Notes under the pieces: model-generated | The model's database searches: none | Seen by the model: the letters and a program-made list of their open reading frames with translations, nothing else | Told to the model about the DNA's origin: nothing | Shown here: positions 30,300-64,000 of the stretch, one piece after another | Position numbering within the stretch: the stretch's first letter is position 1 | Layout: every line of letters starts with the position of its first letter | Made by a program: the position numbers and the translations under genes | Origin: Flectonema sp. DT1601 | Taxonomy: Eukaryota | Direction: 5' to 3' | DNA length: 64,000 nt | Assembly: GCA_964019425.1 (NCBI GenBank) | Contig: OZ025785.1 | Coordinates: forward strand, 1,054,001 to 1,118,000

Positions 30300-30466
30300 T
30301 AAACAACCACTGCCGTCTGTATTATTACCCTACAGGTGGGTTATTGTACTTCTTTTGTCGTACTGTTCATCATTATTTACCCGTCGTAGCGAGGCTACAC
30401 GGCGATTATATGCTTAAAGTAAGTCTTGTTTTCCTTAACCTTATTACTGCAGAGATTTAATACAAA

Positions 30467-34299: not shown

Positions 34300-34582
34300 A
34301 TCGATACCAAATTGTTAGTCTTTAGTTTTAGTCAAAAGTTGCTTGTACTCATGAGAGTGGGTTGTTGTACTTCTGATTGGTCTCTAGTTTGTTATGAAGT
34401 ATAACATGCGTACGATAACTAACACCGACACTAATGTAATTATGTCATCCTTTTGAGTGAATTGTAAAGTAAGATTGGATATCATTTCAATAAAATGAAA
34501 TAAACAAATCACCACCTCCACAAGAAACTAATTCATCTCAGCAGATATTTAATTTAGGAAATAAAAAAAAAAGAAAAATAAG

Positions 34583-38872: not shown

Positions 38873-41800
38873 ATGTTTTGTTCGAGAGTGCTAAGCGTGA
38901 TGGCGCTGTTGGCTGGAGCTCATGCTGCTGCTGCACCTACGACTTGCAACCCTGCGGGGTTGCGTGGAGAGGGACTGCTTCACCACGATGTGAAGCACCT
39001 AATGCCGGGGACATTTCAAAAGACTGCGGCGATGATCTCATCGAGACAGCAACATGTTGCTTGTGACGGGGACTGCGTCAGAAGCTTCAGGGACACCACC
39101 ACTCACTCACCGCTCAAGTATGTATTTCACTTAGGTGGACTCTTTTTTTCTTTTATTTTTTTGTTCAACTTGTTGCAAAAAAGAAAAAAAGAAATGGGGA
39201 AGGGGAAGGGATTGATAATAACAATAATAACAATATTTAAAAAAACAGCATTCACGTTGACTTTTCACTTTTGGATGATTCAAGATACGCTTGTCAAAAT
39301 ACTGGAGACATAATCCAGTTGGCGCACGACCCTTCTCCGGGAGCCGCAAATGCTTTTGGAGGGGGCGGGTACACGACGAGCAACAACATCGACTACGTGT
39401 GCCCGGATTCATGGGTGATGACGAGCAACAAGAAGCAAAGACTGAAGGACGCGGTGAACAGGGCAGTGACTCGAATCAAAACGGGTCTGATGGCCAAACA
39501 CGTGGTCGAAAACGAAGGAATCATCAAGACGGTCGACGGGAGGGTGAACTGCAACGCTCGGGACGGTGATTCGAACGTTTTCAGCAACCTGTTGATCGCA
39601 GAGAACGGAGTAGCGGCGGACTTCGTGTTGTATGTGACGGCCAACCCGGTGATCGTCTTTGACGGGTCGGGTTCCAGGATTCAAGCCAATGCTGCAGGTT
39701 GGCCGTGCCACTTTGCGAGGGAGAGTTCAAGACCGGTTATCGGTTTGATATCATTCCACCCGGATCAAGTGTCGGATATTGACAGTGAGGTTCAGTACAT
39801 GTCGAGCGTCGCGCTGCACGAGTTGGTTCAGGCGCTGGGATGGACTCCGGAGCTTGCGGTGAACGACAAGTACATCACCAACTGGAACGCTGAGGGAAGA
39901 ACGTTTGACCAACTTCCTATTGACCTCATGGTGACGAAGAGTGATCGTCTTGGAAAGAGGGGTTACCTGAGATCTCGCGAAGTGACCTTTGCCGAATTCT
40001 TCGACGATCCGTCGTGGGTGCAGCCGGCGTTTTCTTCGTGGAGGGAGTCCTACCCGATTGGTACCCCAGCGCAAGTGACGAAGCTGACGACTCCGACGGT
40101 GATCGAGCAGGCGAGGTTGCACTACGGGTGCAGCCCTACGGATGTCGATGGGCTGGAAGTCGAGGACTACACGTTTCGGGCGATGGGGTACGGCCGTGAT
40201 TGGAACGACTTTCCGCAACACTTTTCAGTTCTTTGGGAGAAGCGTATCGCCAACGACGAGGTTATGAACCTTCAGGTGACCTCGAAGGCGGTTCTGTCGA
40301 GGCTGACTCTCGCGATGCTTCAGGACACGGGGTACTACACGGCGGAGTTCTCTGCGGCGGAACCGTTGGCACACGGGAACAACGAGTGCTTTGTGCTGAC
40401 TTCGAACTGTTGGGCTTGGAGTGGTGATTACATTTGCCCGAGATCGGATGGATTGCCGGTGACGAGCCCCACGTTCTGCACTGCCGACCGACGTGGACGT
40501 GGTACCTGCAATGCCGGCGAGTACGTGGTGTACAGCAGGTCTGTTGTGCCTCGGGTCCCTCGTGAGTACCTTGTGGTCAAGGATGCGGTGACTGGAACGA
40601 GATACTTGCCGTACTATGTCCCCAATCTCAGTTCTTATGCAGAGTTTAACGTGATGAGGGAACCGATCGTCAGACTGAACGGAGGATGTGATGAAATCAT
40701 GGACTTCTGTCCGGTGTGGGAACAGGTTTCGGTTGAAGACGACTGCAGCAACCCGACGGGGTGGGCCGGCACTCCCGCGCAGTACACGGCCCCGGGATCG
40801 ACCTCTTCGTGCTTCGTTTCAAATCTTCGGACGTCTACCACGGGGACGCTTTCGGGAAGGTGTCTTCCTCACGTCTGCGAGGCTGCCGAGGCCGGGACGT
40901 TTGAGCTCACCCTGTTCGTGGGGAGGACTCAGGTAAAGTGCAGCACGAAAGGGAAAATACAAGCGGTCAGCTTGGCTGATGGGATTGGTGGGGATATCTA
41001 TTGTCCGGATCCCACTTTGTTCTGTGCAGGAAAGGCAGAGCTCCCTCCGGTGGCGTTGAGGTTAATCGAGGGTACGGGGGAAATAGTTGTCGGGGAGTCG
41101 ACGGAGTTCGTCATCGAGGCAACCGCGATGGGATCCATTTCGGGAGTGAGGAACCAGATTGGAATGTGTGTGGTGTCCGGGGAGATCGACGAGATGTCCA
41201 CGAGGGAAGCGAGCTACCACGGGAAGTGCGAGAGGGTTTCGACGAGTACTTTTACCCACATGGATTGCCCACTGTTGGATGATCCGGTGAGGAGGAGCTC
41301 GGCGCAGCAGTGCCACGCTGCGTGTTGTGCGGATCCGGATTGTGTGATGTGGCAGTGGATCACGTCCAGCGGCGTGTGCAAGCGGGGATCGACTGGACCG
41401 GAGCTGTGCGAGGGTAAGCCGTGGGAAGTAGCTCAAGATGGAGCATACCTCAGGCGGATTACTCAGTTGCCTTCCTCGGGACTTCTCCCTGGGGAGACAT
41501 GCAAGACGACATTCATGACGCGCCTCGGGTTCGAAGCGAAGGGACAGGCGAAGTTCAAGGTGTTTCTGAAGTCCGTGAGCAGCAAGATCGTGTTCTACGG
41601 GATCGGAGAAAACCTCCTCAATGACGTCATCGTGCGGACTGTGTCGGCGAAGGCCGGGCCTCCTTCGAACGTGAGGATCACGTCGCCGCCTGAGGGAACC
41701 GAGATTCTGTCCGGAAGCGGGTTCGATGTCACCGCGATCCTGACGGATGCGTACGGAAACCCTTCGAGGGGCACTGCCGATGGATCTGTTTGCCCGTGGG

Positions 41801-44800
41801 GGGTGAAGACTTCCGAGACGGATGTTGACTTCTTGGGTGACGACCGGGTGGTGATGGACGGGAAGTGCATTGAGCTGTACAGGACGGCGATGACGAAGGC
41901 CGCTGCGAAGGAGAAATGCAGGACGGCTTGGGGAGAAGGGATGGGGACCCTCGCGACAATCACGAGCTTGGAGATGGAACAGATGCTGGTTGGGGCCTCG
42001 GTGGGTTCTTTCTGGACGGGATTGGAGGTGACTGCCTTGACGATGCCGGCGACGACGACGTGGGATTCGGGGGCGGACTCGCAATGGTGGAGGGAGACTT
42101 ACGGAAACCCGAATGGTCAGGATTACGGTGAATGGGGTTACAGGAAGGGTTGCTGCAGCGGAATCTGGGAAGCGGATGTCGACAGGTACGAAACCACCGC
42201 GGCGTTTGATGCGAATCCTCGGATCAAGAGCTGCATTCGATTCAACCCGAGCGTGTACGAGTACTACCCTTACGAAGCGGTTCTTTGCCGTGAGAGCTAT
42301 CCGTTCTTCTGCGAGTTCAGGCCCCGATTGAAGTTGGTTGTGGACGCAGTGAGCGTGGATGCCGAGATAACTGCGCCTGTCGGAGTGTACGCGGGCAGCA
42401 ATGTGAGGTTCAATGGAGTTGTCGCTTTGAGAGCGCCAGTCGGAGACACTGTTGATGACCACGATACCTTCATGATTCAGGTCACCAGCCCGGGAACGAT
42501 CTTGTCGTCGACCGGAGGGCAGGTTATCTTGAAGTGGAAGGTGCCACCTCAGCCAACGCACATCCAGGCTCTGGGCTACGATAGCGGGTCTGCTACGTGG
42601 TTGCCGTCGATCACGGTTCAGGCGGGCGGAACCATCACTGTGACGATCAACCCGACCGATGTCGGGGGGAAGTTCATTTCTTGGAGCAACATTATGTACT
42701 ACGAGGTGAGGGACCTGTCTTCGGGGAACGCGTACGAATTCACAGGATCGTGTCCAAATGGGAGGGTGAAGGACGGATGCCGGGTTGTGATGACGCCGGA
42801 GAGCCATCCGTTCATTACTAAGGTGAAGACGATTGAGGTGGTCGCTTCGTCGGTGAAATTGACTGCCAACCCGGAATCGGTTCTGATCCACATTGTTCCG
42901 GGAACTCCGTGCGGGATCGACGTTGATTGCCCAGCGGCTGCCGAGTACGCATCGGTCATGGATCCAGTTGATTTTAAGATTGTTGATTGCTACGGCAACC
43001 CTGTCTGCGACAGGAGGAGCAACGGGATGCCGATCACCGTTTCAGGTGACGGGCAGCGGGCCCTCGCTTCGGGCTTCGGATCTTCTCCGACGTCTGTTTG
43101 CGGGGCGTTCAGCTCGGAAGGCGACTGCAGAGAGGGAGGATGCCTCTGGGGAACTGCACAGATGGATCCGTTGATCTGCGAGCCGGGAACCTGTTGCTAC
43201 TCTGTCAACGGTCCACGGTTGGTTCCACACCGCGGATCGAGCGATTTCTTGGGAGCGCAGAGGCTGTGTTTCCCCAATGATCGTGCCATCCTGTTCTCTG
43301 GTAGCGAGGCTCCGTACATCAGAACTGCGAGTTGCGCGTACGACCTTGCGGAATTGTCTGACTTCGAAGACATCTTTTACATCAGACCGTCGACTTCGGG
43401 GAAGCTGCACCTCGAGGTCGCTTCGAGTGGTTCAGAAATTGTGAAGCCCAACGAGTACGAAGAGATCGGGGACAAGTGTACCCCTGATTCCAACGGTGTG
43501 ACCGGACTACACGACACCTACACCTGGGACACAGCCGATTTCTGTGACCCAACGGAGTCGTCGTTCGATGCCGCAAGGTGTTTGAAGCCGATGAACGCGG
43601 ATGTTTGCAAAGAGCTTTGCAACCTGTACCCGAGTGCGGGCTGCATTGGAGTGGAGTACTCCGAGGCAGCTGTCGTCGCTGATTCAACAGCAGCATCGTG
43701 TCCCGCGGAGTACCCGATTGCATCTGACGGAAACACCTGTTGCAAGGCTGGTGATTCCTCGGACTGCACGGGATGCCCGGCGGTCGCCGACCAAAATCAG
43801 GAACAGAATTTTCTGTGCACCGTAGGTGGAAACAGCTTCGTTTTCCCCGGCAAACTCACGGATCTGGGACTCGTGTCATACCAGACAGTTGATGATGAAA
43901 GTTGTGCTGATGGTAGGAGAACGGTGCTGAAGTTCACTGATACGGCAGCCCACCACGACAGAATATTAGGTCGGCTTAGTTGTGGGACCTTGGGTGCGAG
44001 TAGTGTCACCCCTGCTAACACGTGTGTTGCACACGCTCGTGTAGAAAGCTTTGGCGAGTATGCTGGATGTCGCATTCAGCAAGCTTCCGTTTCCGAATTT
44101 CGAGTAGTAAATGCTGTTGAAGGATGCCCTGTGTTCTGTGATGCAAGGGGGTACCAATACTGGGGTTTGGTCTGTCCGTTCGTTGATGGGACAGTAGGGT
44201 GCATATGTTCTACACCTGCTGAATTTGATGGATCAGCTGTGACGGATGATGCCGATTGCTGGTCAGCCAGTGGGAACGAGCCTCAGTGCAACGGTGCGAG
44301 CTTGAAAATTGGAACAACAATTTATGGCTCGGGTCGCAGTGAGAGGGCGGCAGCTTTCTACAGGGTAACGCGGTCTGTTGCTGTGTCTACTTCGAGGACT
44401 TGCGCAGACTGGAAATCTGATGCGAAAAGCTGCTCATTGATGTTGAAGGGACCGAGGCCAGCGTCCACCACGACCATTACCAACGGGCCTGTGGTCTACG
44501 GACTAAAAGACGGACACACCGGAAACCTTAACAACTACGAGAACACTTTGACGAAGGCGAGCGCGCCGTCGGAATCGACAGCGGGCGACATGTGCTTCCG
44601 CAGAGGGGTGACGATCAAGGGAACCAAGCCAAGCCTCAGCGTTCAGATATTCGGACCGAAGGATTCGCTCGAGGCAGTTGATGGGGAAAGAGGCAGAGAA
44701 GAACTCTGGACGTGCGAACCCTCCCCGTCGTCGAGTGTGTCGTTGAAGCAGGCAAACGTGGAGGCGAACCGAATCTACGCGATCAAAATCAATGTTCTCG

Positions 44801-47800
44801 AGGAGGTTGATGCGGTTGAGTCAAAGCCTCTGTACACGGTGAGGCTCGGCGAGGAGAACGAAGCCGGACTGTCTTGCGGAGAGGACATGGAGTGCACGGC
44901 GGGACATCCGTGCCCAGCAACATGCAGTGAGTCGATGTTCTCGGGATTGATTGTCCCTGCTGAGAGCGGGAGCTGTGCCGAGTCGACGTTGACGGTGTCG
45001 CTTCGCGCCGACAAGGAATGGACTGATGAGTTTGGCCTGACGATCACGGAGGGGACTTGCGAGGTTGCGATGGGTTGCTCAAAGTTCTCGCTTCAGGCAC
45101 CCGATGAGATTACTTCGGGAAGGACGCTCTGGAACTTCGTGGCGTTCTCGGTGTCGGCTTCGGCGGGACAAAATCTCGGCGACAGGCAAATTGCATGGAG
45201 GCTGGTGGCGATTGACTGCGAAAACAATGTGGTGGAGTCGTGGAGCAGCGTGACCGACACGGAACTGGATGCGGCGAACGGCTACTCGAGTTCGGCAAGC
45301 AGAGACTTCGAGGGTCCTGCGTGGGGATCGGGATACCGTGGAACGTGCTCGTACATCACTTTGAGGATCATTTCAACCAGCCACCCGATCAAGGCTGCGG
45401 AGAAGAGGGTTGTCGTGCTGCCGGGTAATCCGTATGCGGTGGAAATCCTGAAGGATGTCCCGAGCTGCTACGAGGCGTGTGACGGAGATGCGGGTTGCGA
45501 CAACCTCCGATTCTCTGTTGTCCTGAGGACCGAAATCGGTACCAGGTCGCTCACGGATGGGATTGAGTGTACGGCGTCGGCTGAACACCTCGATGAAGGG
45601 AATAACCGTTACGTGTCGTCCGCGTTCTCGCCGTTTCCGAAAATCGTGAAGCAGACTGCTCAGGGAGTGGCGACGTTCTCGACCGGGTACAAGCGGGCGG
45701 GAGATCTAAAGATCGTCGTGAGCTGCGTGTGTGCGACGTGTGCGGGTGACAGGAGGGCTGTTGTGATGCAGAGCATGCAAAGGTTCGTGGAGGTATTCCC
45801 GGCTGCGCCGTCGTCGATCACCTGCAGCGCGCCGACCCGTGTGTTGGCGGTTGACGACATCGATGTATCGGCGTTTCTTTCGGACGAGTACGGAAATGAG
45901 GTTTCCGAGAGGGTGTCTGGAATGGAGCTGTCCCTGAGGAAAACGTCTCCTGGAGAGGGGACTGGGGCCCTGGCTGGGGCGAGGTCGGTGGCCCTGTCGC
46001 CGAACGGTGATGCCGAGTGGATCGTGCAGCACGATAAGACTGTCAACGCGTTGGCGATCGAGATCTCGGTCGCGGCACCGACGCTGAGCTCCCCGTCGGA
46101 ACCGTATTCGTACACCGGGTGCTTCACGACTTCGAACGTGGGGTCTTTGCTCGGAAGCGGTTGCACGAAGAAGAGGGAGTCGGAGAACATGACCCCGGCG
46201 ATGTGCGCAAAGGTGTGCGCAATCTTCCCGACGTTCGTGCTCACCGGGAACGATGTTGGTTCGAGGGCGACGGTCTGCATGTGCTCGATGCAGGAGGCGA
46301 TCACGGGAACGCCGACGGCGGGAGCGAATTGCCAGAGGCACGGATGTCAGGGAGACGTGCTCGGAACGAACAGCAGATGCGGATGCGCTGTGGGAACGGA
46401 TGCGAGGATCGTGGCAGCTTACAGGAGGAACACGAACTACCAGCAGACCGGGATCGCGGCGACGACGTGCGGTTTGATCAGGGTGTACCCGAACAGGCCT
46501 CGGGCGTTGAAGATCACCAAGCAGCCGTGCGAGTGGGTTGGAAACACGCTGGTGGGGAACTACGAAAGGAGGTGCCAGCAGGCGCTGAGCAGCGCGAGGT
46601 GCCCGGATGCGGCTGTGAACCAGCAGATGAGCTACACGGTGGGGGTTTACGATGCCGGTGGGAACTTGGCGGACACGGCTGGCGACTACAGGACGTTCGC
46701 GAATGCGAGATCGGTGAGGGAGTGTTACAAGAGGTTGGTGACGACGACGACGGTCGGGGGCGAGGAAATCGAAACAGACGAGGTTTGCTTCGACGGGTAC
46801 CCGGACGTGGAGGTGTCGCTGGAGCGGATCTCGTACGCGGGAGGACTGTCGATTCAGCCTGAGAAGCACAACCTTCGAAGCGGAAACGTGTTTACATTTA
46901 CCACGACGCAGGTGGACGTGGGATGTGTTGTTTTGTGGGCGACTGCCGACGGGGCGTTGGATAGTTCGGCGGCGACGAACAAGATTTGCTTCCACGCGGG
47001 GCCGATTGCCCGGATCGTAATCGTCGAGTCGCCGGAACAGGTGTTCGCTTTGAGCAAGTTCCCGTTGTCGAAGGCAGTTGTCTACGACAGGAACGACAAT
47101 AAGGTCACCTGGGCGACTTCGTCACTCGGAATCTACCCGTGGGACGACGGTGCGCAGCCGAACGCGGAGGAGTTTTGTCTGGGGAGGGTGACGACGGGGG
47201 AGGGGGAGGTGAGAACCGTTCCCCGCGTGGTGAACGCGCTCATCAATTTGGGGGCGAACCACCCCGGTGCGACTTCGGAAAGCAGGAGGCCGTACAATCC
47301 GAGCACGAAGCTGAGCGGCGGTGAGACGACGTTCGGAGGGTTCGCGTACCAGTCTCTGGAAGACGGTCTGGACACCCCGTGCTTCAGGTTGAGGTTGTCG
47401 TTGGAGAGGGATGGCGGGAATCCGTCGGTGTTGGGATGCCCTGCCGGAACGTCGGGTCGGTTGATCGAAGCGCTCCAGCTGAAGGAAGATGAGTATTCAA
47501 CTGTTGTCGGTCTCTCTGATCGCATTGAAATATTGCCGGCGTCGCTTGCGTTGGTTTCCCCGTCGAGCGACACGGTGACCGTCAAGGCCGGTACTCCGGT
47601 TACTGCGATCATCTTCTGGACTGCTGACACCCAGTGCTTTGCGGATCCGACGTGCCAAACCGACGCGTTCAAGGTTCGGATGGAGTACGTGTCGGGGCCA
47701 ACGAGTTTATCTGACTGCGCGATGTGTGGTTACGAGGTTTCGTCGCCTGATGGCAGGCAGGTTCGGTTCTCGAACATCATTCGCAGGGTCGCGGGTACCT

Positions 47801-50800
47801 ACAAGTTCCGTTTCTGGGGGACGTCGCAGGACGTTCCTTTCGCGGCACCTGTTGACCTGACGATCATAATCCTCGCTGCTGATGCCGATAGCTTGAACAT
47901 CGTGTGCCCTGAGGAAGTGGTTTTCGGGTCCGGGTTGGTTGTCGACGCGGGGACGATGTTCGCGTACCAAGTGGATGTTCGGGATGGGTACGGCAACCCG
48001 GTGAAGACGTGGAGCGAGGACATCTCGTTGCACGCGAGGGTCGCTGGCGGATTTAGGACGTACGCTCCGTGGTACGACTTTGGGCAGCCGATCCACGTGT
48101 CCCAAACGCAGGGGAACACGTACGCCGTTTTCAACGGGCTCTCGATTGAGAAGACCGGAAGGTACGAAATCTACGCGAAGTCGGGGAGGTTGTTTAACGA
48201 CTTGTGCACGGTGACGATTACCGCTGCGGAACCGGAAAACTGTGCCGCGTATTTGACGGACAGCCCGGTAGAAGCGCAGCCGGAGTACGTGAAGGCGGGA
48301 GTGAACATGAGGATCCGGGTTACGTTCCACGATGCGTACGGGAATCTGATTGCGGCGAAGATGAACGGGGAGACGGTGACCGTGGACCTCGCGCAGGGAG
48401 TTACTGGAATGCTCCACGGGACGACGGAGAAAGTGGTGAGCTCTGCGCTGACGTTCTTCGACGTGAACTACCAGGTGGCACCGAAGGAGATCGGGTTCAT
48501 CGCTTCCGCGAGGGAAGGGTCGTTGTCGTGCAGCACCGACGGTTTGCTGATCGTCGCCAACGACCCGGCGACGATTAAGATTATTGAGGTTCGCGAGAGG
48601 GAACCGAGTGCGGAGACTCCACCGAAGGAGCCGTTGCAGCCTATCGAGGGACCGAACAACGATGAGTACCTGTCTCCGTTGACTGCTGGAGAAGACTTCT
48701 GCGTGAAGGTCCACATTGTCGACGAGTTTGGAAACATCGTGGACGAAAGCAATGAGGAGATCAGGAAGTTGTACACGTCGAACGCGGGTACAGGAAACAA
48801 CGGCTCGCCGCCAATCTTCAGTTTCGATCAGGCGAACACGCAACCCTTGTTCACGTTTGGAGGTGATTCTAATTCTGACGGAGGTTTGTTGTCTTTCTTG
48901 GATGACGAGCAGGGGTCCGATGAATGTAACGACAACTTCATCCTCCTTCCGTTCTTTGGCTTCGAACCGCCCCAGGAATGCGGTTCGGGGGTTCCTGTGT
49001 TGGATACCGATGACTTGCCGCTTGATAACAACCCGACTCTCGATGATGGAAACGCTGAAGCGATCGGGGGGGAAACGTCTCCCCAGGAGAGCAACCCCGA
49101 GTACCCGATGAGGCGGGTGACGCTTGCCAGGTCCGGATGTGCGAGGGTTGACGGATGCAAGAGCACCACCGATGAACTTGACGGGACGACGCAGCTGGAC
49201 TCTGTGAACGGAGTGTTCGATATTTGTGGAGTGCAGTACGTCCGGTCCGAGTGCATTTACATCATGGCGTCGTCGGCGGACCTCGGAACCGACGAGTCTC
49301 CAAAGGTTTGCGTGTCGCACGCGGTGTGGGACAACATGCAATGCGTGACGACTACTACGAGAACCGCGCAGGGGAGGGAATTCGGAGGATTCAAGGTGTC
49401 GATGTTCGACGTGCACGGGAACCCTGCGAGGAGCTGTTCGAGGGATTCGGATGACAGGTCATGTGAGGTGACGATCCAGGAAATGGAGGAGAGAACAACA
49501 AACGGGTACACGTGCTGCGGGAAGAAGACGGACCCGAACCTGGCACCGGGAGTTTTGACGGGAGAGGAGCTGACGATCGACGCAGCTGGCGGAAAGGCGG
49601 ACTTCGATGAGTTGGTTTACAGCAGAGGAAGGCCGGCGAGCGATGCCCTCGAGATTGAGGTGGTTGGGGCTGACGGAATCCGTGCGTACTGCGGTCAGGT
49701 TGTAGTCGTGGGAGTCCGTTTGGTGTGTACGGAGTCCCCTCCGGAGGTGGTTGCCGGAGAGGCGTTCGCGGTTGAGGCGAAGATGATGACCTGGAGCGCG
49801 GCTGACGGGGAGTACGTGGACATCAACTGCGTTGGGGAGAACAGGAACACCCTGTGTCCTACAATGGGGAGGCTCAGAGTTGCCCAGAGCACGGGAACGT
49901 TATCCGGAAACTACTTCTTCGTGAGACAGGCTGGGGCGTCCGGGTACTCGAATGCGCACTGCGGTGCGGCGGCAACAAGGGGAGCGTGCGGCGGAATTGC
50001 GGACCCGGCATGTTCGTACGGCGTTCACGTGACGGAGCCGTTCCCTGCGATGAAGAGCGCGCTGAGCTGCTACAACCCGACGCCGGACTTCAGCGGGTTC
50101 CAGGTGTCTCCAAACACGTTGGGGCAGCTGACGTTCTCGTCGCTGAGGTACTACACGGCGACGACGTTCAGGCCGGAGGCAACCCCGAAGCACGCGAGCG
50201 TTTCGACGAGGCAGTGGGCTGCGGCAGTGGCGGCTGACAGCGAGGCCCCGGGGGTGTGCGATCCGGTGAAGGTGGTGGCGAACAAGCCTTACGAGCTGTG
50301 CATGGGTGGGACCACGAGTTCGTTTCAGGCAATCCTGCACAAGGGGTACTCGGAGACCCCGAGCTCGGTCAGGTACGGAGCGAAGTTTGAGAGGTGCAAG
50401 TTGCTTTGCGACGCGAGCAACACCTGCAAGAAATGGGCGTTCGTGCCGGATGAGAAGGTGTGCAAGCTGTACACTGCAGGGGACATCGTGCCGACCGCCG
50501 ACGAAGAGGGAACGGTGTCGGGATGCAAGGAATCGGACGACCCGGCGTGCAAGTGCACGTGTGCTGGGGCGGAGGGTGGTTGCCCGGCATGCTTCACGGT
50601 GAAGCCTGGAAGCTGCTCCAAGTGCGCGGGTCCGAACTGCGGTAGTTGCCCGGCGAAGACTGTCGTTGCGGGAAGACCTTTGACGATGGGGATGAGGATT
50701 CACGATGAGTGGGGCAATGAGATCTCTGAGACGATTACGAAGGAAGTGGTTGTGTCGTGCAAGGTGACGCGGGGACCGCTTCGCAACCCCGAGTACCGCC

Positions 50801-53800
50801 CGACGCTGTACCCTGAGCCGGTGTTTTCGGTGGTGCCTGTGACATCGGAAGATGAGCAGCAGAGGAAGGGGATGGTGACGATCACGGGTCCGTCGAGCCT
50901 GCGCGTGGCCGGAGACTACGAGGTCAGTTGCTGGGCGGACACCTGGGGACCGGAAGGGGAGATGGACTCTGGTATGCCTGACCTGACGAACTACCAGGCA
51001 CCGGGCGGTGTCGTTTGGACGCCGGTTGGGGTGGTGACGGGAAGCGGGGGCGAGTGGGTGGCCCGCCAGCAGCTGCAGGATATCCTCGACGCTTCGTCCA
51101 ACCAGATAATCCGCAGGCGGTGCCTCGGATGTTCCCAGGAATTCACGTTCATCAAGATGAAGAAGCACTTCGGCAACCTCGGCGAGGTGTTGTCGAAGAC
51201 GTGGTCGTCGGCGGTCGCGGTCGGAGACTACGAGGTTTACAACACGTACCGGGATGCCGTGCTCGGGGTGGACAAGTGGGTGGACGCCTGCAGTGCATGC
51301 GAAGGCCAGACGGACACAAGCTGCCCCCAGGGGATCTGCGTGTTCGAAGGAACCTGCAAGCCTGCGTTCGAGGTCGGCTTCCCGGGAATGTGTGGCGGGG
51401 GAAGGGTGTGGACCCCTACCGGGGTAGAGGGGCAGGACGTGCTGACGACGGCCAAGCACGTCACGTTCGCCGTTGAAACCGCTCCGGGGTGCACGCCTCG
51501 GGTTGGAAAGGCTGCCGACTCGGAACGCATTCGGGTGGTGGATGCGAGAACGTTCGACGAATGCGTCAAGAATGTGAAGGAGACGTACAACGGTTTGACC
51601 GAGCGGGAGGCAACGGCGGCAAGTTGGAAGAGTTCAAACGGCAAGTGCTTCGCTGTGGTCGGTGTTTGGGGAACCAAAACGCGGGTCAGAAGGGGGACGA
51701 CGAATTTGGCCAGGTGGCGCACATGCGACTTCCCAGCTGTCAACAAGTACTCGGTTTCGGTCGGGGGTTGCGTGTGCTACGGTGAACTGTGCCCTTGCAG
51801 CTCGCCGCCGAGAAGCAACCCGAACCTGAGAAAGGTGTGCGGGGTGAAGGTGATCCCTGCGGCGGCTGACCACCTGACGTGCCTCGACCGTCCGAAGGAC
51901 ACGTTCGTTGGACAGGAATTCGACGTGACGGTGGCGGTGCGCGATGTGTACTCGAACCGAGTCGCCTCCGTGAACGAGGGGACGGTGACTGCGCATTTCA
52001 AGGGTCTGTCGAGCCCTGCGGGGGACATTGTTTCCGGGGTGGCGACGGTGTCGATGGCGCTGAAGAAGTATGGCGACTTCAAGGTCCAGGTGACGTCGGA
52101 CCTGGCAAGCCTCGCGAATAAGGTGGCGCGTTGTCCGGCAACGGTGTTGAACGACGAGGAAGACAACTGCCCACCGCACAGGGTGACCTGTCCGATCGAG
52201 GACGACAGGTGTTGCGATGGAAAGGTTGCTTGCCCGGGGGCCAACAGGATTAAGGTGTGCCCCGGTGACTTGACCACGATCACGTTCGCGACGCATCCGC
52301 CGCACAACGTGCCGTGCACGTCGGAGAAGCGTCAGCAGTCGGAACAGATGATCCCGAAGATCACCATTAAACTCTTCGATGAGGAGGGGAACCTGAAGAT
52401 CCTGCGGCCGATCAAGGTGAGCATCATGCTTGCGACGGCGACGAACGGGGCTGCGCCGTCGGAGGAGGGAAGGTTGTCAGGGACGGTGTCGAAGGACTCG
52501 GTGGGGGGAGTCGTGGTGTTTGACGACCTGTCGTACAACGTGGCGGAAAGGATCGGTCTCAAGGTAGAGGCGTTTGAGCAGGGCGCGGTTGTGTCGGGAG
52601 TGGACATCACGGTGCAGCGCAAGTCGACGGCGATCATCAACGTGTGTCCGGGAGACATCTGCAAGATCGAAATCGAGGATTCACCGACTACCTGCACCTT
52701 CGACGTGGTGACTGAAGACCCGATTGAGGTGGTTGCGAAGGATCACTTTGGCAACAACTTGCTCGACCATCAGGTTGAGGATTGCGAGATCTCGGTCAAG
52801 GTGAAGAAGACGGGGACGCCGGACGGATTATTCTGGGTTCGCGTGAAGGACGGTTCGTCATCGAGCGAGGATCGCTACAGCCGCGCCCGATTGGGGCACA
52901 CGGTGACGAAGATCAGCGAGACTTCGTTCATCATGTACGGTGGTTCGCTGGTTCGGCGCGAGGACCGTGACTTTGAACACCTCGGAAGGGCCAGTGGACG
53001 CATCGATCGAGAGTGGGGGGACAGACGTGTTTGGAGGTTCGACGTCTTGACTTCGGAGTGGACGGTGGTTTGGTCACCTCCGGAAACACCGAGCTTCAGA
53101 ACCGAGGGAGGCGACGTTCCTGCAGAGGGAGTTGTTGGAGGAAGATGCCTGTACCTCGGCGGACGTCGGCCTGCGGAGAGCCAGCTGGGGAACTGCAACG
53201 AACACGGTCCGACGCAGAAAGCCGGACACGCTGGGGAGTTGATTGGGAACAAGTTGGTCGTGTTCGGAGGGTTTTCCCCGGGTAAGTTTCGCACGGGACA
53301 CTACTCTGGTGACGTGTGGATGTATGATGTGGTTACCAATCTTTGGAACCAGGTGGACGTCAGGGACAGTGAAGTCAAGTTCGGGGGCTACATGATGGCG
53401 TCGGCATCGTACCGCAGGCGGTTTTACGTGGTAGGCGGAACTGCTAGTGAGTTCGTTCCTGGAGAAAGCAACGGCCGCTTTTTTGCTCAGGGGAAGGCCA
53501 CCCACTTGTACTACTTGGACCTGAGCACCGCGGTGACGGTGAGCGTAGCAACCGAGACACCGAAGGTGTCGTGGGTGAAGGTGCCGATCGGCGGAAATGA
53601 CCATCCATACATCTATTTGGGATCATCGGCTATTCTCATTGGAACAAGGTTGTACGTCACCACCGGTAGGTCGATCGGGGAAATAGCTGACGACGTCGGA
53701 ATCTACTCGATTGATCTCGAAAACGTGAACGGAGGGTGGAGGGTGGAGTCGCGCATCTTGCCGTACGTGTTTAACCACCACACTGCGTTCGACGCGGAGA

Positions 53801-56800
53801 CGAGGGAGATCATCATCTACGGAGGACAGGAGAGGTACGAACAGGCGGTCGGCCATACAGTTTTCACTGAGCAGTCGCGCGTCACGAGGTCGTTCAACAT
53901 CGACACGAAGCAGTGGACGAACTTGAACCCGGGTGGGAAGTCGGGTTGTGTCGCGCAGAGCGGTTACGAGTACTTCGCGGCGAACCCAGAAAACGCGCCG
54001 GTGGTGTCGAACCGATGCAGTTTGAGGGGTGACGAGAACGCGTGTTCGTTGGCGGACGCGGGGGAATGCGCGTCGCGGACGACGAAGGGGGATTGCCTTC
54101 CTGCGGTTGGTAGCGACAGTTTCAAATGCGCGTGGCTTCCAGGCGAGGCGGGGGCCGGGGAATGCGTGGTGCCCTGCCGATGGGTGGACGCTTCGTTCGG
54201 AGGAGACAAACCCGGAAAGAGGTTCTACTCTGGAAATGCCAGGGGCCACGTCATCACCGTTGGTGGTCAAAAGAGAATGTACATGTTCGGTGGGATGACC
54301 AAGCTTTCGCCTGAGCAGCAGATGTACTCGGAGCACTTCTTGCAACCGGATGCGTATGCTGTATTTCCCGATACGGTGACGTCGTCGGACAGCGACATGT
54401 GGTACCTGGAGATGCCGAGCAGCGGTGCGAAGGAGGCGTTCGACTTGAGGCCGTACGAGAAGAACTGCCGGGCGGTAGCGGGAACTGAGACATCGTGCGC
54501 TCACTTGTGGTGGAACAAGGTGCAGTGCGAAGGAACTGCGGGGTGCAGGTGGTTCGCCGGTTCGGAGTTCGTCTCCGGGGATCAGGTTCAGTGCTCGGCT
54601 GCGGACGGGCCGGACTGCGTTGTCCTTCACGGAACAACGTCGTTCAGGATGCCTTCGTCGTCTGTTGAATTCGATAACATCATCGTGTCATCGACGAGGA
54701 AGTTGTTGGAGGATTCGATGGCTTACTGCGCGACTGTAGTCGAGGGTATGAACTGTCAGCAGCACGCAACTGAAGAACAATGCACGGGAGGGGAGGGAGG
54801 AGACTGCAGGTGGGTGGTTGAGGCGCCTACCAGGAGGATGTCGATCCAGATGTTCGTGTCGGTGAAGTGCGGGAAGAAGGATCCTCGCTGCCCGCTGTCG
54901 CCGGTCGACTTGCCGTCAAGGGTTGAATGTGCTCGTTGCAAGCTGACGGTGAACAAGCAACCTGGTGGGGAACACTTGGTGATGGGAGCTGGGAAGCCGA
55001 TCTTCACGTCGAACTTGCCGGGTCACAGTTTGAGTCCGATTACCGTTGATGTCACTGGTTCGGATGGGTCTCCGGTCACCAACCTGGACAACTCGGATGA
55101 CATTCTGAGGGACACGTCGATCACCCTTTGGCTGTCGAGAACGAGGTTCTCGTCGAACAGGGAGAGGACGTTGGAGTCGTCTACGAAGGCGATCGTCGGA
55201 ACGAGGTCGACCTTCGAGCAGAGTGACTTGTCGTGGAGCGTGGACTCGGCGCCTTCGGTGATTTGGTTGAAGGCGGACCACGCAGAGGGTGTTTGCGAGT
55301 CGAGCCACGCATGGCCGGTGAACGTTGTGAACGACCACGCTTGTGGATGGAAAGTCAGGAGCGTGAAGCAGGAGGTGAAGGCCGGGGAGGCGTTCGACGT
55401 GGACGTGACTCTGTTGGACAAGTTTGGAAACGTGGCGTACTGCGACTACCAGAGAGGGCACTGGAGGGAACCGGCTTCGGGACCTGCAAAGGTGCTGAGG
55501 ACGTTGCCAGACAGCAACGAAGACGCGTGCGCGCAGGCATGCCGCGAGAGCAGGCGCTGCAGCTCGTGGAACTTTGCCGCGGAGAGCGTGACCCTCGAGG
55601 GAGCGAATGGCGGGACCCGTATGATTCCGAAGGGAACGTGTCTTTTGAACAGGGGGCTGACAGTCATCAAGAGCCGGGGATGGGCTGAGGTGGAGGGGGC
55701 GGTGACCGGTGTTCCGGGAGGGATCTCGTGCAGAAACGGGGAGTACCTTGCGGTTGAAGCGGTGGCGGCCGACGGGGAAGCCGTTGAGGGGACGATGTTC
55801 TCGGCGACGCACGGGCTCGGGAAGCCGCGTTGTGTCGTGATGGGGGTCGAAGAGGCGGTTGCGACCCTCGTGTTCGGTGGAGACGCGAAGTCGTGCGGGA
55901 AGTGCTGCCGCGAGAACGGGGCCGGCAAGGTGGTCGAGTACCGCGAGGAAGGACACGCGACCAAGTGCGGTTGCACCGACGGGACGTTCCCTTTGGCGGG
56001 GACTTCTTCGTGCTCGGGGTTGTCTGGAGAGGGAAAGAGGTACGTGTCCGTGAGGGACATCGTCGAGGGGTTCCAGGAGGACGTGGTTTCGCACAGGGCG
56101 ACTTTCAAGAAGCTGTGGCACAACAAGGCCGAGCAGATCAAGTTGGTGTTCCACCTGCGTTCACACTTGGAAGGCGCGCCGAGCGCGGGGTGCGCTGTGA
56201 ACCCGTCGGGAACGTTGAAGGTGATTCCAAACGATCCTCACCACCTCAACCTCGAGAGGATTCCGGATGTCGTGCAGGCGTCGTGCGGAGTCGACAACCC
56301 GTTTACTGTTGAACTCGAGATTGTCGATTTCTGGAACAACAGGGTTCCTGTTTCCGACCACGTGGTCGAGATTTCGGTTGAGGTCGGCAGCGAGAGGCTC
56401 ATGGGCACGACGGTTACGAGGTCGGTGAACGGTCTCGTGACCTTCACGCTCAAGTACCAGAAGGCCGAATACTTGACCCTGTACGTGACGGATCGAAACA
56501 TCGCTTCGGGGCAACAGCAGCAGCAACAGCTGAGCATTGCTAGCGGAGCCGGAAGCAGCGAGGCTGGCAGCTGCGCGGGAAGCTGCTCAGGAAACAGCTG
56601 CTTGAACCCGACGGACAGCATGTGCTGCCTGGAGCTTCCGCCGATCAGGATCCTCAGCGGGCCTGCATACAAGTTGGTTACGATTTCCCAGCCGCCGTCG
56701 GTCATTCAGAGTTACGGAAAGGGGGATTGCGATGGGTTCGGCTACGAAGTTCAGTTGCAGGATTCGTGCGGCAACCCGATCGACTCGGAGCACGCTGGCG

Positions 56801-59800
56801 AGAGTGCGGCGGCCAAGTACGAGGGGACCGAGGTACAGGTGGTGGTGGAAACCGGTGATGCGACTCGGTACGTCGCGAGCAACTGTGACAGCGAAGTGTG
56901 CATCGGCAGGTTGGTCCCGCTGCGTCCGTTTGCGACTTTGACTTGTTCCATTGGCGGATCAAGCCGCTGTTCTTGCAGTGACTTGATCAACGAGGCGACC
57001 GTGGACATCGAAAAGGGATACGTTTCCGGGGAGGATAACCTCGTTTGCCAGGCTTGCGAGGCTGCCGGATTCGGGAGCGCCTGGGATGTGAGAAGGGGAT
57101 TGCTGACAATCTCGTCGACGGAAGCGAGGTCGCTGGACTCGTTCACGCAGATGATGAAGAGTGTCGTGTTCACGACGTCTTCGCTGGAGAGCGAAGAGCG
57201 CACCATCACCTGGAGTTACGGCCACGCGTTCTACTCGACATACACGAATCACTTCTACCATTACTACCCAAAGGCGTCCTGTCAGGATGGATACCCGGTG
57301 GGAGAGCGTGTCAACAACCGGTGCCACTGGAGGGATGCGCAGACGGCGTGTGAAAGCAAAACGGTTCTGGGGATGCGTGGGTACCTGATGACGGCGACGG
57401 ACGCCACGGAAGACGAGATCGGAAAATCGAAGATCCAGGGGAGCGGATGGATGGGAGCATCGGACAGGGCGGAGGAAGGGACGTGGGGATGGGTGACGGG
57501 TCCGGAAGGTCAGCGGGGAGGCTGCGTCTACGGAGAGGGGAAGACCGGTTGCTTGGAAAGTGAGATTGGTTTGGTGTTTGGAAGAGGCCAGGCCCCGGGG
57601 TTCAATGCCGTGATCGATCCCGCGACCGGAAACCCGTTCTACAACGCGTACTCGGAGACTGAGCCGAACGATTACGGAGGTGGTGAAGATTACCTGCACT
57701 ACTGGCCATCTGGAGCATGGAACGACTACGCGGCCGAGCAGCGAAATATCGATGGTTTCATCTGCGAGTGGGGAGGGCTCGATGAACCGTGCGCGAGCAT
57801 CGGAGAACTGTCGGGGACTTTGGTGATCAGGGCAGGAAGCGGAAGCCCTGCTGGAAAACACACTATTTTGAACCCGCCGCTCATCCTGACCGGGGGAACT
57901 TGCACCATCGAGGGAGCGCACTCTCAGGTGGACCCTGACCTGCGGTTGACGGTTCGCCTTCCGGAGTACGCGGCGATCAGGCCGGCGAAACCGAACCCGA
58001 TCGAGGTTGAACACTGCACCCCTCGCAAGCTGAAGATCACTGAGCCGAAGGGATGCAATGATCCGAAACTGCCCCTGCCGGTGATTGGAGTTCGCACTCA
58101 GATGCCTGACATGACGGTTGTTATTTTGGATCGCGATGGAAACGTTTGCGACACGACGGAGGTGCTGTCGGCGACCGACGTCGGGTGCCTGTCGACGCTC
58201 GAGGCGCCGCCGGGTGCCCGTTTCATGCGTACGAAGTCGAAGGACCAATGCATGCGTGAGTGTGCTGGTCTGGGATTCCAATACTTCGGGATGACCGAGG
58301 TGGAATGCAGATGCCACATAGCGTCGGACCTCGAAGGGTCTGAGGAAGCAGAGGGCGTGCAGTGCACATCGCAGTGCTACTCGGAAGCGCAGAACATTTG
58401 CGGTGAGGATCCGTTGTCGATCGCGATGTTCGAGATCCGGACGACTTACGGAAGGCTCGAGTACTCGACGTACACGTCGAGGGAGAACCCGAGGAGGAAG
58501 CTGGACCCTCGGTTCTCGGCGCTTTCGATCGCGGACAAGAGCTTCGCGGGAGGCGGAGGAGAGTTGTTCGGGTCGCTGGTGAAGGATGCGTTCGAGGGGG
58601 TGGTGGTGTTCGACGACACGGTTTGGCTGCCGGACCAGGTGAGCCGCGCGGCGTGTCTTGCGAACTCGAGAGCGGAGCCGTGCTCTGGGCAGCTGACGCT
58701 CGAAGTGGAGGATCAGTTCGGGGAGCTTGAGAAGGACACCTGCGTGGTGCGGTCGCAGAACGACAAGGTGGTGTGTCCGTCGGCGACGACGTTGGCTACC
58801 AGGGTCGGCGAGGAATTCGACATCTGGGCCTGGGTTGACACGAGCTTCGAAGGAATGGACGTGACGACGATCGAGTTGACGATCTTCGACGACAGCAACG
58901 AGCTTCAGATTGTTGAGGGCCCGCACCCTGAACAGGGGAATGGTGTCGTGAGCAGCTGGGTGAAGTCGGGATCGAGGTACGTGCTGACGGTGACGAGCAG
59001 CGGGGTCCTCAGGGAAGAAGACAGGGTTTGGTTCCCGAGACTCTTCTACTCGACGGTCATCCCGTCGAACATGGAGAAGGTTGACCGGACGATCAGGATT
59101 CAGTCGGACTTTGCGGAGGAGTGTCGGGTGAAGGTTCAGGTGTCGGCCGGTCTGGTTTCGAAGTGCTCGAGAAGGCTGCCGTCTTCGACGTGCTACAGGG
59201 CATGCGACTATTTTGGGTTCGAGTACTTTGCGTTGGATACGTACGGCAACCAGGTTAAGGGGGACAAGGGACGTTGCGTGTCGACGTCGACGACGCCTGG
59301 GTCGTGCCCAGGGAGGGGAACGTTCCCAGAGGGACCGCGGGGAATGGGGACTCTGAAGAGTATGTTCACCCAGGAAGCCGGACAGATCGGTGTCGGTGTC
59401 ACGACCCGTCGCAGGAACGGAGTGTTGGAGCTGTTCCTCGAGGACACCCTGCGGTATTGGAAGAGTACTTCGATTCCGATCGAGTGGAAGAACGGTGAGG
59501 CCCCGGACTACGGGAGGATCGAATCGGGCGAGCTTTGTGTTGTGTTGGACAAGGTGACCAGGTTCGCAGGTTCAGCCAGCTTGGAGACCTTCTCTTGGAC
59601 GACTGCCGCGTGCTCGGGGGTCGAGAGGTTCTTCTGCAGCGCGACGCGGGTCAATCGTAACCAGTGCAGCAACTGGATCGCGCCTCCCTACGGCCGCGTG
59701 GCGGTGTCGCAGCCGCCTCCGGTATTCACTTCGAACGGTGGGAGGGACGTTCTTTATGGGAGAACATTTTCTTACGGCAACCGCGGAAAATTCTCTTTCA

Positions 59801-62800
59801 AAGTGTACTACTTACGGGCTGTCAGGGCCCGCGAGTTGACGGCAACCTTGATCGCAACGACGGGCGAAGAGGTCGACTGTGGGTTCGGGTTGAAGACCTT
59901 CGAGATCGACATCTCCCCTGCGTTGCCGCGATACCTGAGGGCGACGATCTCGGCGAATTCGCCGATTTCGAGGGACTCGAATAATTGGCCAGTTGTTTGC
60001 ATTTCGTGTTCTTCGGTTGATTCTTTCGACGTCAGGGTGTCGTCGTGGGACTCGTATGGCAACCTCAACAGTTGGGATTGCGAGTCTGAGGACGCGTGGT
60101 CGTCGAAGATAGGCAGGGTGACGATCTCGGCTGAAGGGGTGGTTGATGGGAAGCTTGTGAAGCCGGATTCCACGGGACTCGTGGGAATGCCGGGGACGGT
60201 GGCGGAGGCAAGGGACGGGAAGCTGATGCGGGGAGGAGTGGCAACCTTCAGCGGGCTGCGATTCAACCGACCAGGGTTCGTCAAGTTCGTGGCCGAGGTG
60301 AATGAATGGACTGTGCCGACTTGGAAGCCGACGTTTCCGGTTGTGTATGCGCACTTCGAGGCGTGCCTGCCGAGGAAGCTGGTTCTGATCGAGGGAGAGC
60401 CTTCGCCGGTGGCAGGAAAGGAATTCGTGATGGGCTATGAACTCCGTGACCAGTACGACAACAGGATCACGGCTGATCCGTTCGATGTGTTGGAGAAGGC
60501 GAAGAGGTTGAGCGGCCAGGGCAGAGTTGTGAAGTTCGGGTTCACCAACGGCTATGCGAACGAGGAGCACAGCGTCGAGGAAATCGATTCCTACTACAGC
60601 CGTCACGGAAGGTACGCGCACGCGGTTACCCACTACAAGGTGTTGTACGGGACTTCTATCGTTGCGGTGAACACGAAGCTGGCTTTGGGAGTTGAGAACG
60701 AAGTCTTGATCGACCTGACGGGGACGCCGTTGGAGACGTGTTCGGCGGCGACGATCGAGAGGGATGACGAGTTGAACCTGAAACACAACGAACCGATCTC
60801 GCTTTCGGGATTGGTGCACGACGAAACGGTGCACTACGACGAGCCGTTCGCGTACGGTGTGAGCGCGTACCAGTACGACAGATGGAACAACGAGGGTATC
60901 GAATGGGAAAGCCGTTACGGAGGGATCGAGTGCAAGCTGGAGTTGTCGACGGCGACGGTGTCGTTGTCGGTTGACGGCGTCGACACGGAGGTGACGTACA
61001 CGCTGCCGTTCGTTCCGGTGGCGACGAATGAGCAAGGTGCGGGGGGAGCCCAGCTTGCGAGGGGAGTGCAGCAGCTGGATGCGATGCAGGACGCTCTGCG
61101 GGCTTGGTTCAACGAGGACGCGACGAGGACGGGGCTCACCAACACGGTGCCGTTTTCCCGGGCGGGATCAGATACGAAGGTTCCGTACTTCGTGCCGAGT
61201 CTGTTGATGGGGCAGAGGATGGGGGACGACAGGAGGCCGGTGGCGTACAGGAGTTCGATGGTTTGGTTCAGGCAGACGTTCTCGAGGAGGGCGACGGGGA
61301 AGTTCAAGCTGCTGACGACGTGCGTCCGTCTGGACCGAAGCGCGTTTCGAGTGGACGATCCGCAGGCCCCGCAGCGGTTCAGCAAGGAAACCGCGTACAT
61401 TACGGTTGAGAGGAACGCCATCGAGCTTGTCCGCGAGCCGCCGAGGAACCCGTGCAGGCGTGCGGGAGACGCGGCGTACTTCATCGCGAAGTTGACCCTC
61501 GCGAACGGCGACGACCTCGTGAGCTTCCCGACGGGAGTCCGTCTGATGTACACGATGCTTTCGGTGGACTCGAGGACGACTTCGGGGCCGTTCGCTTGCG
61601 ACGACGCGGTGGTCGTAAAGCGGGAGACTTCGCACGCGGACTTGTCCCAGGAATCGCCTCACACGGTTTGGGTGAGGTGTTCGATCAACAGCGACAACTC
61701 GGAGTCGAACTTGCCGGCGGGGCTGAACTTGAACGGTATGAAGGATCGCAGGCAGTCGTGGGTCGTGGACCTGCCTGGGCGTCCGACGATCATGCAGGAC
61801 ACGTTGGGCGGGGAGGTGGCTTCCGGGTACTCTTCGGTGGAAGCGGAGTTCATCGAGTTCATCCACGCGTGCACCGACAAGATGGTGAGCGACAGTCGCC
61901 CGCCGAGGGAGGTTGTGGTGAACACGCCGTTCTCGCTGAAGGTGACTTTGAAAGACAGGTTCGAGAACAACGGCGGTGTGTACACGATCACGGTGAACGC
62001 GTACAACGTCAACCCGGAGGGTTTCGTGGGTGATTTGAACACGCATTTGGTGAGCCAGTTCACGAGCAGCGCCCAGAAGGACCAGTCGCTCGGTGCGAAC
62101 GACTTCGCGACCGGGGGGGGAGTGGCGTCGTTGTCTGGGTTGTACGTCGACAACGAGTTCCTGAGGGACGCGTCCGGCGAGGAAGGATTCATTTGGGTGG
62201 TCGCTTTCGTGAAGAAGAACTCCGGGAAGGGATGCGATGCCGGGTGCGACCCTCACTTGGAGGGATCGCTTTCGTGCAAAAATGGTGCGGTCCCCCACCC
62301 AATATTTGGATGCGTCTCCTACAACTTCGGGCGCATTCTTGTGACGCCTGACAAGTTCGAGAGCTGCCACTTCGTGAAGTTCCCTGGTCCTGACGGCATG
62401 ATTGCGGGGTCGAGGTTCGCTGAAGATTTTGAAGTCGTCTTGGCCGACCAGCACGGTCTGAGGATCCACGAGTGGGGGCACACTGACGAGGCGAAGATGA
62501 CTGTGGTCGGAAAAGACAGCAAGACGCCTGGGTACGGACTGAATTTGTTCATGGATGCTGTTGGCCTTTCGCCCATCACTTCTCCGAAGGAAACGGAAGC
62601 GGGCGGACTTTTTGTAGTTGAAATGGTCGTGGGTGGGTTGGCGGAAAACGGTGGACAATTCTCGAACTTGAATGGGCAAACCGAAGACGAATGGTGGGTT
62701 CTTCGGGTGGTGTATGTGAACACCGAGCCAAGGGGTCTTTTAGAGATTTTCAGTAGCGACAAGGATACATTCAGCATCTACGTTCCGTTGCCTGAGGACC

Positions 62801-64000
62801 TTTGGGTCACTCTTACTGTGTCGGTTGGCACTTCGGAGGTGGCCTTGACTGTGGTGAGCCTCGATGGCAGCAAGACAGCGACTGCTACTGCGGCGTTCGA
62901 GTCCAGAATCCCGACGGATGGCATCCAGACGTTGAGACTTTATGAAATGGGTTTCTCGTCGCTTCGCGTGACTTCCGGAAGCACAGCTTACCTGGGAGTC
63001 ACCGTTCTGAGCGATGGCGACATTGAATCGAGCGGTGGGTATTACAACGTCGTTGGACCTGTGAACAGGGATCTCCTGGTGATCGAAGGTTCAGTGGCTG
63101 CGGTGACGCAGTCGGTTGGGTTGCCGGGGGACTGCTTCCCGGATTCGGCGGTGACCGGAAGCGACATCCTGACGTACACGACACCTGATTCTTGCATCAA
63201 GAGCCGAAAGGATTACAAGGTAACATGGATGAACAACTGGTACACGAAGACCGGAAAGGTGACTGTGAAGTTCTCGCTGAGGGACGTGACGTGTCAGACG
63301 TCGTTCGACGTGAGGGCCGGTCCGGCGCACCGCCTTCGATGCAAGGACGTGCAGGAGGAGGTCTTCACAAGAGAGCCTTGGCATTCGAGCATCGATGTTG
63401 TCGATGAACACGATAACCTGGTTGAGTGCATCGCTGACTTCCCGGCAACCAACACCGAGGAGGGCGTGTTCGGGGCGAGGTCTTACGACTGCACAGCGTA
63501 CACGGCAACGGTTGCCGTGCACGACGACGTGAGCGGGGATTCCCTGTACCAGGCATCGCAGACGGAGTCGCCGTTCACGAGCATTCCGCAATCGGAGGCC
63601 GCGTTCAGCCCGAGGTACGCCCAGCAGCCGAAGTCTGCGCTCCCGACGGGAGGGGTGAACGGCGTGGCGGACGGGTCGACTTTGGCCGAGTTCGGGGTTG
63701 ACTTCACGCAGGCTACTCCGGTGTCGACTGAGGGATGGGACGCGCGCTCTCCGACGGGAAGCTGGGCGGTGGGTTCGGAGTCATCGGCGGAGGGAGGGAG
63801 GTACTTCTTCGCATCCTCGGAAACCGAGAGGGCGCTGAACATGAGGTACCTCACGGACGGGAGGTTCGAAAACTTCGACAACCACGGAAACAGGTGTGCC
63901 CGGTCGAGGGATCCACGGGCGGTGTGCAGGTACGGTTCGGACCCGAGTGTGGACGGTTGCTGCAGGCTGCACACGCCTGGGAGAATAGTTCCTGGACGGA
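38873..64000 (+). CDS. Giant secreted/surface multidomain protein (>8,300 aa, runs off the 3' end): signal peptide, degenerate leishmanolysin/GP63 (M8) domain, ~25 Ig-like repeats with inserted lectin/WSC/PAN/Kelch modules
   Basis: Exon 1 is 38873-39117 (MFCSRVLSVMALLAGAHA...), followed by intron GTATGT(39118)...AAACAG(39248). Frame 1 from 39250 showed no stop in the stretches I translated. The ORF track lists no terminated + strand frame-1 ORF between 39250 and 64000. Confidence 0.93.
39250..41025 (+). other. Peptidase M8 (leishmanolysin/GP63)-like domain
   Basis: Motifs ADFVLYVTANP, RPVIGLI, ALHELVQALG, ARLHYGC, GLEVED, WEKRIANDEVM, SRLTLAMLQDTGYY, GG...MDFCP and GDIYCP appear in GP63 order. 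Confidence 0.9.
41860..42318 (+). other. C-type lectin-like domain 1
   Basis: GKCIELY...AKEKC...GTLATITS...FWTGL...C...C...PFFCE; no EPN/QPD or WND motif. Confidence 0.8.
46105..46425 (+). other. WSC-like carbohydrate-binding domain (others at ~44056-44367 and ~58180-58437)
   Basis: YSYTGCF...MTPAMCAKVC...VCMC...C...C...RCG...AAY. The other copies show C-x3-C-x3-G(Y/F)QY(W/F)G...CxC. Confidence 0.75.
50390..50530 (+). other. PAN/apple-like module (others at ~41300-41385, 43600-44600 split, ~51540-51730, ~55520-55650)
   Basis: CKLLCDASNTCKKWAF...CKLY...VSG follows the C-x3-C-x5-C-x2-W...C-x-L pattern. Confidence 0.7.
52885..54415 (+). other. Kelch-type beta-propeller, six blades
   Basis: Blades read RLGHT...IMYGG, AGHA...LVVFGG...DVWMYD...W, FYVVGG, LYVTTG, HHTA...IIYGG and GHVI...MYMFGG...DMWYL. 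Confidence 0.88.
57247..57777 (+). other. C-type lectin domain 2 with EPN and WND motifs (bacterial-style)
   Basis: NHFY...WRDAQTAC...GYLMTAT...GWMGASDRAEEGTWGWVTGPEG...EPN(57661)...GEDY...WND(57718)...GFICEWGG. Confidence 0.9.

Follow-up and report, generated by a model that had tools for sequence, protein, structure and literature searches.

The window, the 64,000-nucleotide stretch of DNA analyzed here from Flectonema sp. DT1601, likely a diplonemid protist, contains one very large gene, read on the forward strand, that continues past its right-hand end. Exon 1 (38873..39117) starts at ATG 38873 and, judged by eye, encodes a hydrophobic, signal-peptide-like N terminus and a pro-segment in which a Cys is followed by a His-His-Asp motif. 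A predicted GT-AG intron of 131 bases (39118..39248) keeps the frame on splicing, and a peptide spanning the predicted exon junction matches two other protein records, P0153 and P0004. Exon 2 (39249..64000) is stop-free for about 8,250 codons and exits the window; the stop-free frame to which it belongs (39241-63999) has 8,253 codons. The predicted product of both exons exceeds 8,332 residues, 3.7% of them Cys, and its C terminus lies beyond the window. A scan for transmembrane-like segments found no hydrophobic segment at threshold in the residues encoded within the window. At the start of the long frame lies a leishmanolysin (peptidase M8) domain whose zinc site is degenerate (39249..41040). 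Judged from the sequence, the gene is unbroken, with one predicted intron, and this domain forms the N-terminal head of its giant product.

Several other features lie upstream in the window. An AT-rich satellite with a unit of roughly 141 bases forms several arrays, of up to about 17 copies, between 2638 and 16705. A 717-codon frame (26882-29035, +) matches the Pfam Tra1 HEAT-ring family (E 1.3e-07), and two tandem, closely similar AMP-binding (acyl-CoA synthetase-like) genes occupy 30461-32745 and 34565-36950 (+), each divided between two frames as for one intron. Rfam returned 0 matches.

The original prediction, made from the letters alone, was that the leishmanolysin domain looks like a pseudoprotease; it did not mention that the domain heads a giant protein, and it proposed aligning the domain to the family profile and to the structure of Leishmania GP63. 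The domain was recognized by Pfam, phmmer, AlphaFold2, and Foldseek. It scores 94.9 bits against Peptidase_M8 (PF01457), for which the cut-off is 21 (E 6e-27), and phmmer matches it by sequence to the GP63 structure, 1lml. An AlphaFold2 model of the head, built on a 47-row alignment (A2) that puts a His upstream of the third-ligand motif in the ligand column, has a mean pLDDT of 78.6 and a pTM of 0.85. With this model as query, Foldseek returned 1lml as the sole match at E <= 0.001 (E 9.9e-26; TM 0.66 by target length; rmsd 6.7). As modeled, the head has a leishmanolysin fold.

Both ligand substitutions that had been proposed are present in the sequence. Where an active metzincin has HExxHxxG with both His, the window has HELVQALG. 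In the HELVQ motif (HELVQALGW; 39817..39831), the first His (CAC 39817) and the Glu (GAG 39820) are followed by Gln (CAG 39829) in place of the second His. The third zinc His, which in active metzincins follows a long insertion, is replaced by Leu (CTT; 40231..40233) within a motif that reads SVLWEKR; the assignment of this position comes from alignments. The later motif as a whole is PQHFSVLWEKRIANDEVM, with His 40219, Leu 40231, and Met 40264. Within PQHFSVLWEKR, the His (CAC 40219) sits four residues upstream of the Leu. Also as predicted, the catalytic Glu, the Met-turn methionine (DEVM, ATG; 40264..40266), and the structural cysteines are retained; the family alignments show 16 Cys columns with little or no variation, and all 16 are Cys in the window. 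According to PMC11957388, mutating H264, E265, or H268 of L. major GP63 abolishes activity. A non-standard code for CAG or CTT was considered and rejected: the commonest P0153 residue opposite CAG is Gln (34) and the commonest opposite CTT is Leu (20).

Two regions near the site have been rebuilt. A clade-specific insertion before the third-ligand position (40168..40224) holds an Asp-Phe-Pro that is invariant in the window protein, P0004, and P0153, together with the non-conserved His 40219; within it, residues 319-324 have pLDDT < 50. The strand and loop that correspond to the GXXAWA active-site motif, a motif named in 10.64898/2026.02.11.700901, are remodeled (39679..39708). Here, Ile147, Gln148, Asn150, Ala152, and Trp154 (numbering from 39241) are invariant only in these same three dead-site proteins.

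To place the head among its relatives, we used a HMMER scan, which returned 935 proteins at E <= 0.001; the best 150 of the 935, ranked by likeness to the query, were analyzed. The best match, P0004 (3,786 residues), is 44% identical in the head and collinear with the window protein over its full length. A second collinear protein, P0153 (6,864 residues), was the single match in a word search of long proteins (1,059 scored candidates). Both are 35-39% identical overall to the window protein, and in both the second His is replaced by Gln and the third-ligand His by Leu; whether orthologues share the substitutions had been put forward as a check on the prediction, and these two do. Three further giants, P0005, P0006, and P0007, have 7,231-7,962 residues and retain the Glu and every zinc His. 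They too are collinear with the window protein, with aligned stretches that are each 21-31% identical to it. Pro-segments with a Cys and a later His-His, similar to that of the window protein, are present in P0005, P0006, and P0008. P0052, an 85-residue EukProt fragment that is 57% identical to the window head and ends before the zinc motif, is probably another orthologue.

Other searches added little. A word-based search with the head found 3 distant matches among 7,606 candidates of 330-1,050 residues and none among 6,556 candidates of 1,051-3,000 residues; we judge this search insensitive because it missed P0008, P0010, and P0011, which fall in the latter size range. A scan of metagenome contigs gave 31 pattern matches, with 0 confirmed.

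Loss of zinc ligands is concentrated in one clade. We aligned the window domain with 152 proteins (153 rows, drawn from the head's relatives and not a sample of the whole family). Among the 142 rows outside the window's clade, counting the matches listed, 136 are intact, two have Gln in place of Glu, and four are fragments without the motif. Thus, among the matches listed, loss of a His ligand occurs in 0 of the 138 scoreable M8 rows outside the clade, which makes the degenerate site of the window more than a chance feature, and in the 11-protein clade that includes the window, six of 11 lack at least one zinc His. The two Glu-to-Gln proteins, P0113 and P0133 (M8 proteins of Calicophoron daubneyi and Pharyngomonas kirbyi), are likely inactive, judging by this replacement. 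A sister clade within the 11 consists of P0008, P0010, P0011, P0012, and the fragment P0009; these have an M8 head, 2,400-3,200 residues, and many C-terminal hydrophobic segments. Three of these five lack one zinc His and two have a C2 match. By sequence, they resemble receptors or channels whose ectodomain has a protease fold.

We built a tree of 17 proteins (the 11-protein clade and six outgroup rows from the top matches), leaving out the three ligand columns. The window protein, P0004, and P0153, with their Gln and Leu, form a clade (support 100/99). The intact giants likewise group together (99/97), and so do the proteins of the multi-membrane type (100/100). The branch uniting the intact giants with the membrane type receives 92/92 and carries no star. 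On this tree, ligand loss in the 11-protein clade needs three changes, and a single origin for the six losses is rejected (p-AU 0.0004), with the tested group defined by the trait after a first quick tree had been viewed.

The dead-site heads appear to be maintained. Their end branches (0.31-0.50) do not exceed in length those leading to the intact giants (0.34-0.88). Identity to the window protein in the catalytic core is 129/236 for P0153 and 124/240 for P0004 (52-55%), compared to about 30-50% per 300-residue bin (about 40%) in the body. Across 11 intact enzymes, 55 columns hold the same residue in 10 or all 11 of them, and 46 of these columns are unchanged in all three dead-site proteins. 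Among the nine that differ, only the two zinc-ligand columns have one new residue shared by all three. Conversely, between residues 120 and 380, 34 positions are invariant in the trio yet found in at most one intact enzyme. These positions cluster in the GXXAWA-equivalent strand and in two clade-specific insertions, and would surround the cleft.

Beyond the head, the protein consists largely of repeats. About 18-19 dispersed D-x-x-G-N repeats span 41662..60294. A profile made from the protein itself found 19 copies in the window protein and 0 in reversed controls, and a profile made from P0005-P0007 alone found 18 copies; P0005, P0006, and P0007 have 22-23 repeats each. The repeats are likely Ig-like, of the invasin or filamin type. 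Several hints, each weak, point this way: Invasin_D3 matches, Atlas look-alikes with Ig-like names at low recognition, and a model of a body segment that matches tandem Ig chains at low confidence (mean pLDDT 43.8). Interspersed are Kelch repeats, a predicted beta-propeller (53191..53673; PF24681, E 5.6e-22), and a C-type lectin-like module (57325..57504; PF00059, E 2.5e-05), both above the Pfam cut-off. Two PAN/apple-like modules match PF14295, one below the cut-off (41287..41367; E 1.2e-4) and one just below it (55495..55590; E 9.4e-06). A WSC-like module (58213..58404; PF01822, E 3.6e-06) is also just below the cut-off, and P0153 is annotated with WSC too. An isolated HExxH (HEWGH; 62467-62481, +; residue 7822) has no M8 context, and the only HExxH of P0153 is located elsewhere; this motif is probably due to chance.

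The giant protein is strikingly poor in N-glycosylation sequons. Compared to shuffled sequences, the window protein has three sequons where 47.8 are expected, P0153 has five (expected 46.5), and P0004 has three (expected 25.9); for each protein, none of 200 shuffles was as low. In the window protein, the reversed motif is at a normal level (47, expected 48.6), and Asn directly followed by Ser or Thr is also somewhat low (29, expected 51.1). Nine other frames in the window (20, expected 20.0) and the 142 other M8 matches (719, expected 771) served as controls. The intact giants vary: P0007 has a strong deficit (17, expected 62.2) and P0005 a moderate one (16, expected 26.8), whereas none is clear in P0006 (28, expected 34.6). 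The four membrane-type relatives are enriched in sequons. Since P0007 avoids sequons strongly, the avoidance belongs to the rod rather than to the dead head. We infer that the giant protein encounters the glycosylation machinery of the ER, that selection disfavors glycans on it, and that the rod is tightly packed. Together, the conservation of the core and the avoidance of sequons indicate that selection acts on the protein.

A pseudoprotease is a protease fold that is kept under selection with its catalytic residues replaced, and the model and alignments suggest that the head is one. We think it probable that it is a zinc-free pseudoprotease, with a remodeled cleft that binds peptide without cutting it, and that it sits at the tip of an Ig-like rod that is secreted and adheres or polymerizes. 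The giant protein would enter the ER through its N-terminal signal. With a single His remaining, the head would bind no catalytic zinc, and so the retained Glu would be left without an activated water. The remodeled cleft, with residues fixed only in the dead-site clade, may grip a peptide, which could be the protein's own pro-segment, a neighboring copy, or a target, and leave it uncleaved. Equipped with PAN, lectin, WSC, and Kelch modules, the rod would pack tightly or adhere, and either would explain selection against bulky N-glycans. The ancestor's head was likely active, as those of the three intact giants, by their sequence, still are. The folded but dead or non-canonical binding domain that was first proposed fits these observations: the predicted fold, the recurrence of both substitutions in two orthologues, and the higher conservation of the core than of the body.

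By analogy with enzyme/pseudoenzyme pairs, the dead giant could instead regulate an active giant paralogue present in the same cell, or serve it as a structural partner, through co-assembly or competition for substrate. Collinear giants with intact sites do exist (P0005-P0007), and a ligand loss that arose at least three times within the 11-protein clade would suit such a role. The intact giants, however, could be orthologues from another lineage, and we consider a partner role rather unlikely.

A further possibility is that the site is rewired rather than dead. The metal would then be bound by the one zinc His left, by the invariant Gln, and by an acidic residue, for example the invariant Asp of the insertion, with the Glu as general base and a narrow range of substrates, perhaps the protein's own pro-segment. 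The pattern of conservation fits this as well: all three proteins retain the first His, the Glu, and the Met, and the Gln is invariant and not drifting. His193, Glu194, Gln197, Asp323, and Met342 are all invariant in the three proteins, though just 106 of 236 core positions are invariant three ways. However, Leu at the third-ligand position is incapable of binding metal, and Gln occupies the second-His or third-ligand position in 0 of the 138 scoreable M8 rows outside the clade, among the matches listed. Asp323 lies in the loop modeled with pLDDT < 50, and residues of the active-site helix may persist for packing alone. On balance, we doubt that the site has been rewired, and hold this to be unlikely.

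The original prediction carried a caveat that the His four residues upstream of the Leu might substitute for the third ligand, in which case a two-His site could retain some activity. The A2 alignment and a HMMER alignment to 1lml do place this His at or near the ligand column. In A2, however, the placement needs a 4-residue gap, and in the other 44 rows no insertion separates the ligand column from the [WF]-x-x-x that directly follows it. In the 109-row and 153-row alignments, Leu occupies the ligand column, and the intact P0010 and P0012 carry His in register with it. The two orthologues, P0004 and P0153, have Tyr and Pro at the position of the upstream His, so that they lack a His in either register, and their shared Gln and Leu argue against a shifted ligand. 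The second His would be absent regardless, and a role for this His is very improbable. An assembly error or a decaying pseudogene has next to no likelihood, since both substitutions recur in two other records, the frame runs for 8,253 codons without a stop, and selection appears to act on the protein.

One can speculate on what the rod builds. Ig-repeat rods of 7,000-8,000 or more residues that are nearly free of N-glycans could be subunits of a packed, secreted lattice, for example the euglenozoan tubular extrusome, in which dead M8 heads would be latches and live heads would process or release the lattice on discharge. Our one reason for naming this organelle is that tubular extrusomes are listed for several diplonemids in PMC8061765, and we regard the idea as a long shot.

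A dead M8 domain alone is unsurprising, as pseudo-GP63s are known in trypanosomes. What is new is a variant that loses zinc His, retains the Glu, and is fixed across three diverged records. It belongs to a family of giant, likely secreted repeat proteins that appears not to have been described and in which some heads are live and others dead; in the window protein, sequons show a roughly 16-fold deficit. A literature search, by title and with few subscription journals covered, returned no paper on giant M8-headed proteins or diplonemid leishmanolysins. For a little-studied group of protists, the giant family offers a concrete candidate, open to testing, for a secreted component with a structural or adhesive role. 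On this reading, the GP63 fold has been put to non-catalytic use more than once outside parasites.

Among the closest known systems is L. major GP63 (MEROPS M8, PDB 1LML), with which the window head shares the fold, the catalytic Glu, the first His, the motif Gly, the Met-turn, and the Cys pattern, and perhaps, judged by eye, the layout of signal and pro-segment. The pro-segment's Cys and His-His-Asp, also judged by eye, differ from the HRCIHD/HRCVHD form given in PMC11957388. The second and third zinc His are replaced by Gln and Leu, and the distance from the motif Gly to the third-ligand site is 130 residues, compared to 62 in Leishmania (same source). Where the Leishmania protein has a GPI signal after the head, the window protein has more than 7,600 residues of repeats.

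Also close are the T. cruzi GP63 groups G9 and G10, which in PMC11957388 are predicted to be inactive and, by analogy to inactive trans-sialidases, are proposed to have a binding role. Like the window head, they are conserved M8 proteins predicted to be non-catalytic. However, as described there, they lose the Glu and keep the His, whereas the window protein keeps the Glu and loses two His; and they are ordinary-sized and mostly GPI-anchored, with G9 the most N-glycosylated group, whereas the window protein is giant and avoids sequons. Some T. rangeli GP63 genes also have altered key residues, according to 10.64898/2026.02.11.700901, whose supplementary table of non-conserved sites may list His losses. 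Among the matches listed, the nearest named relatives of the head are Diplonema papillatum KAJ9460312.1 (P0008) and Lacrimia lanifica EP01063_P007637 (P0011). Each lacks one zinc His: the third is Asn in P0008 and the first is Gln in P0011. Unlike the window protein, both have about 2,400-2,600 residues, many C-terminal hydrophobic segments, and an excess of sequons, and both fall in a separate clade.
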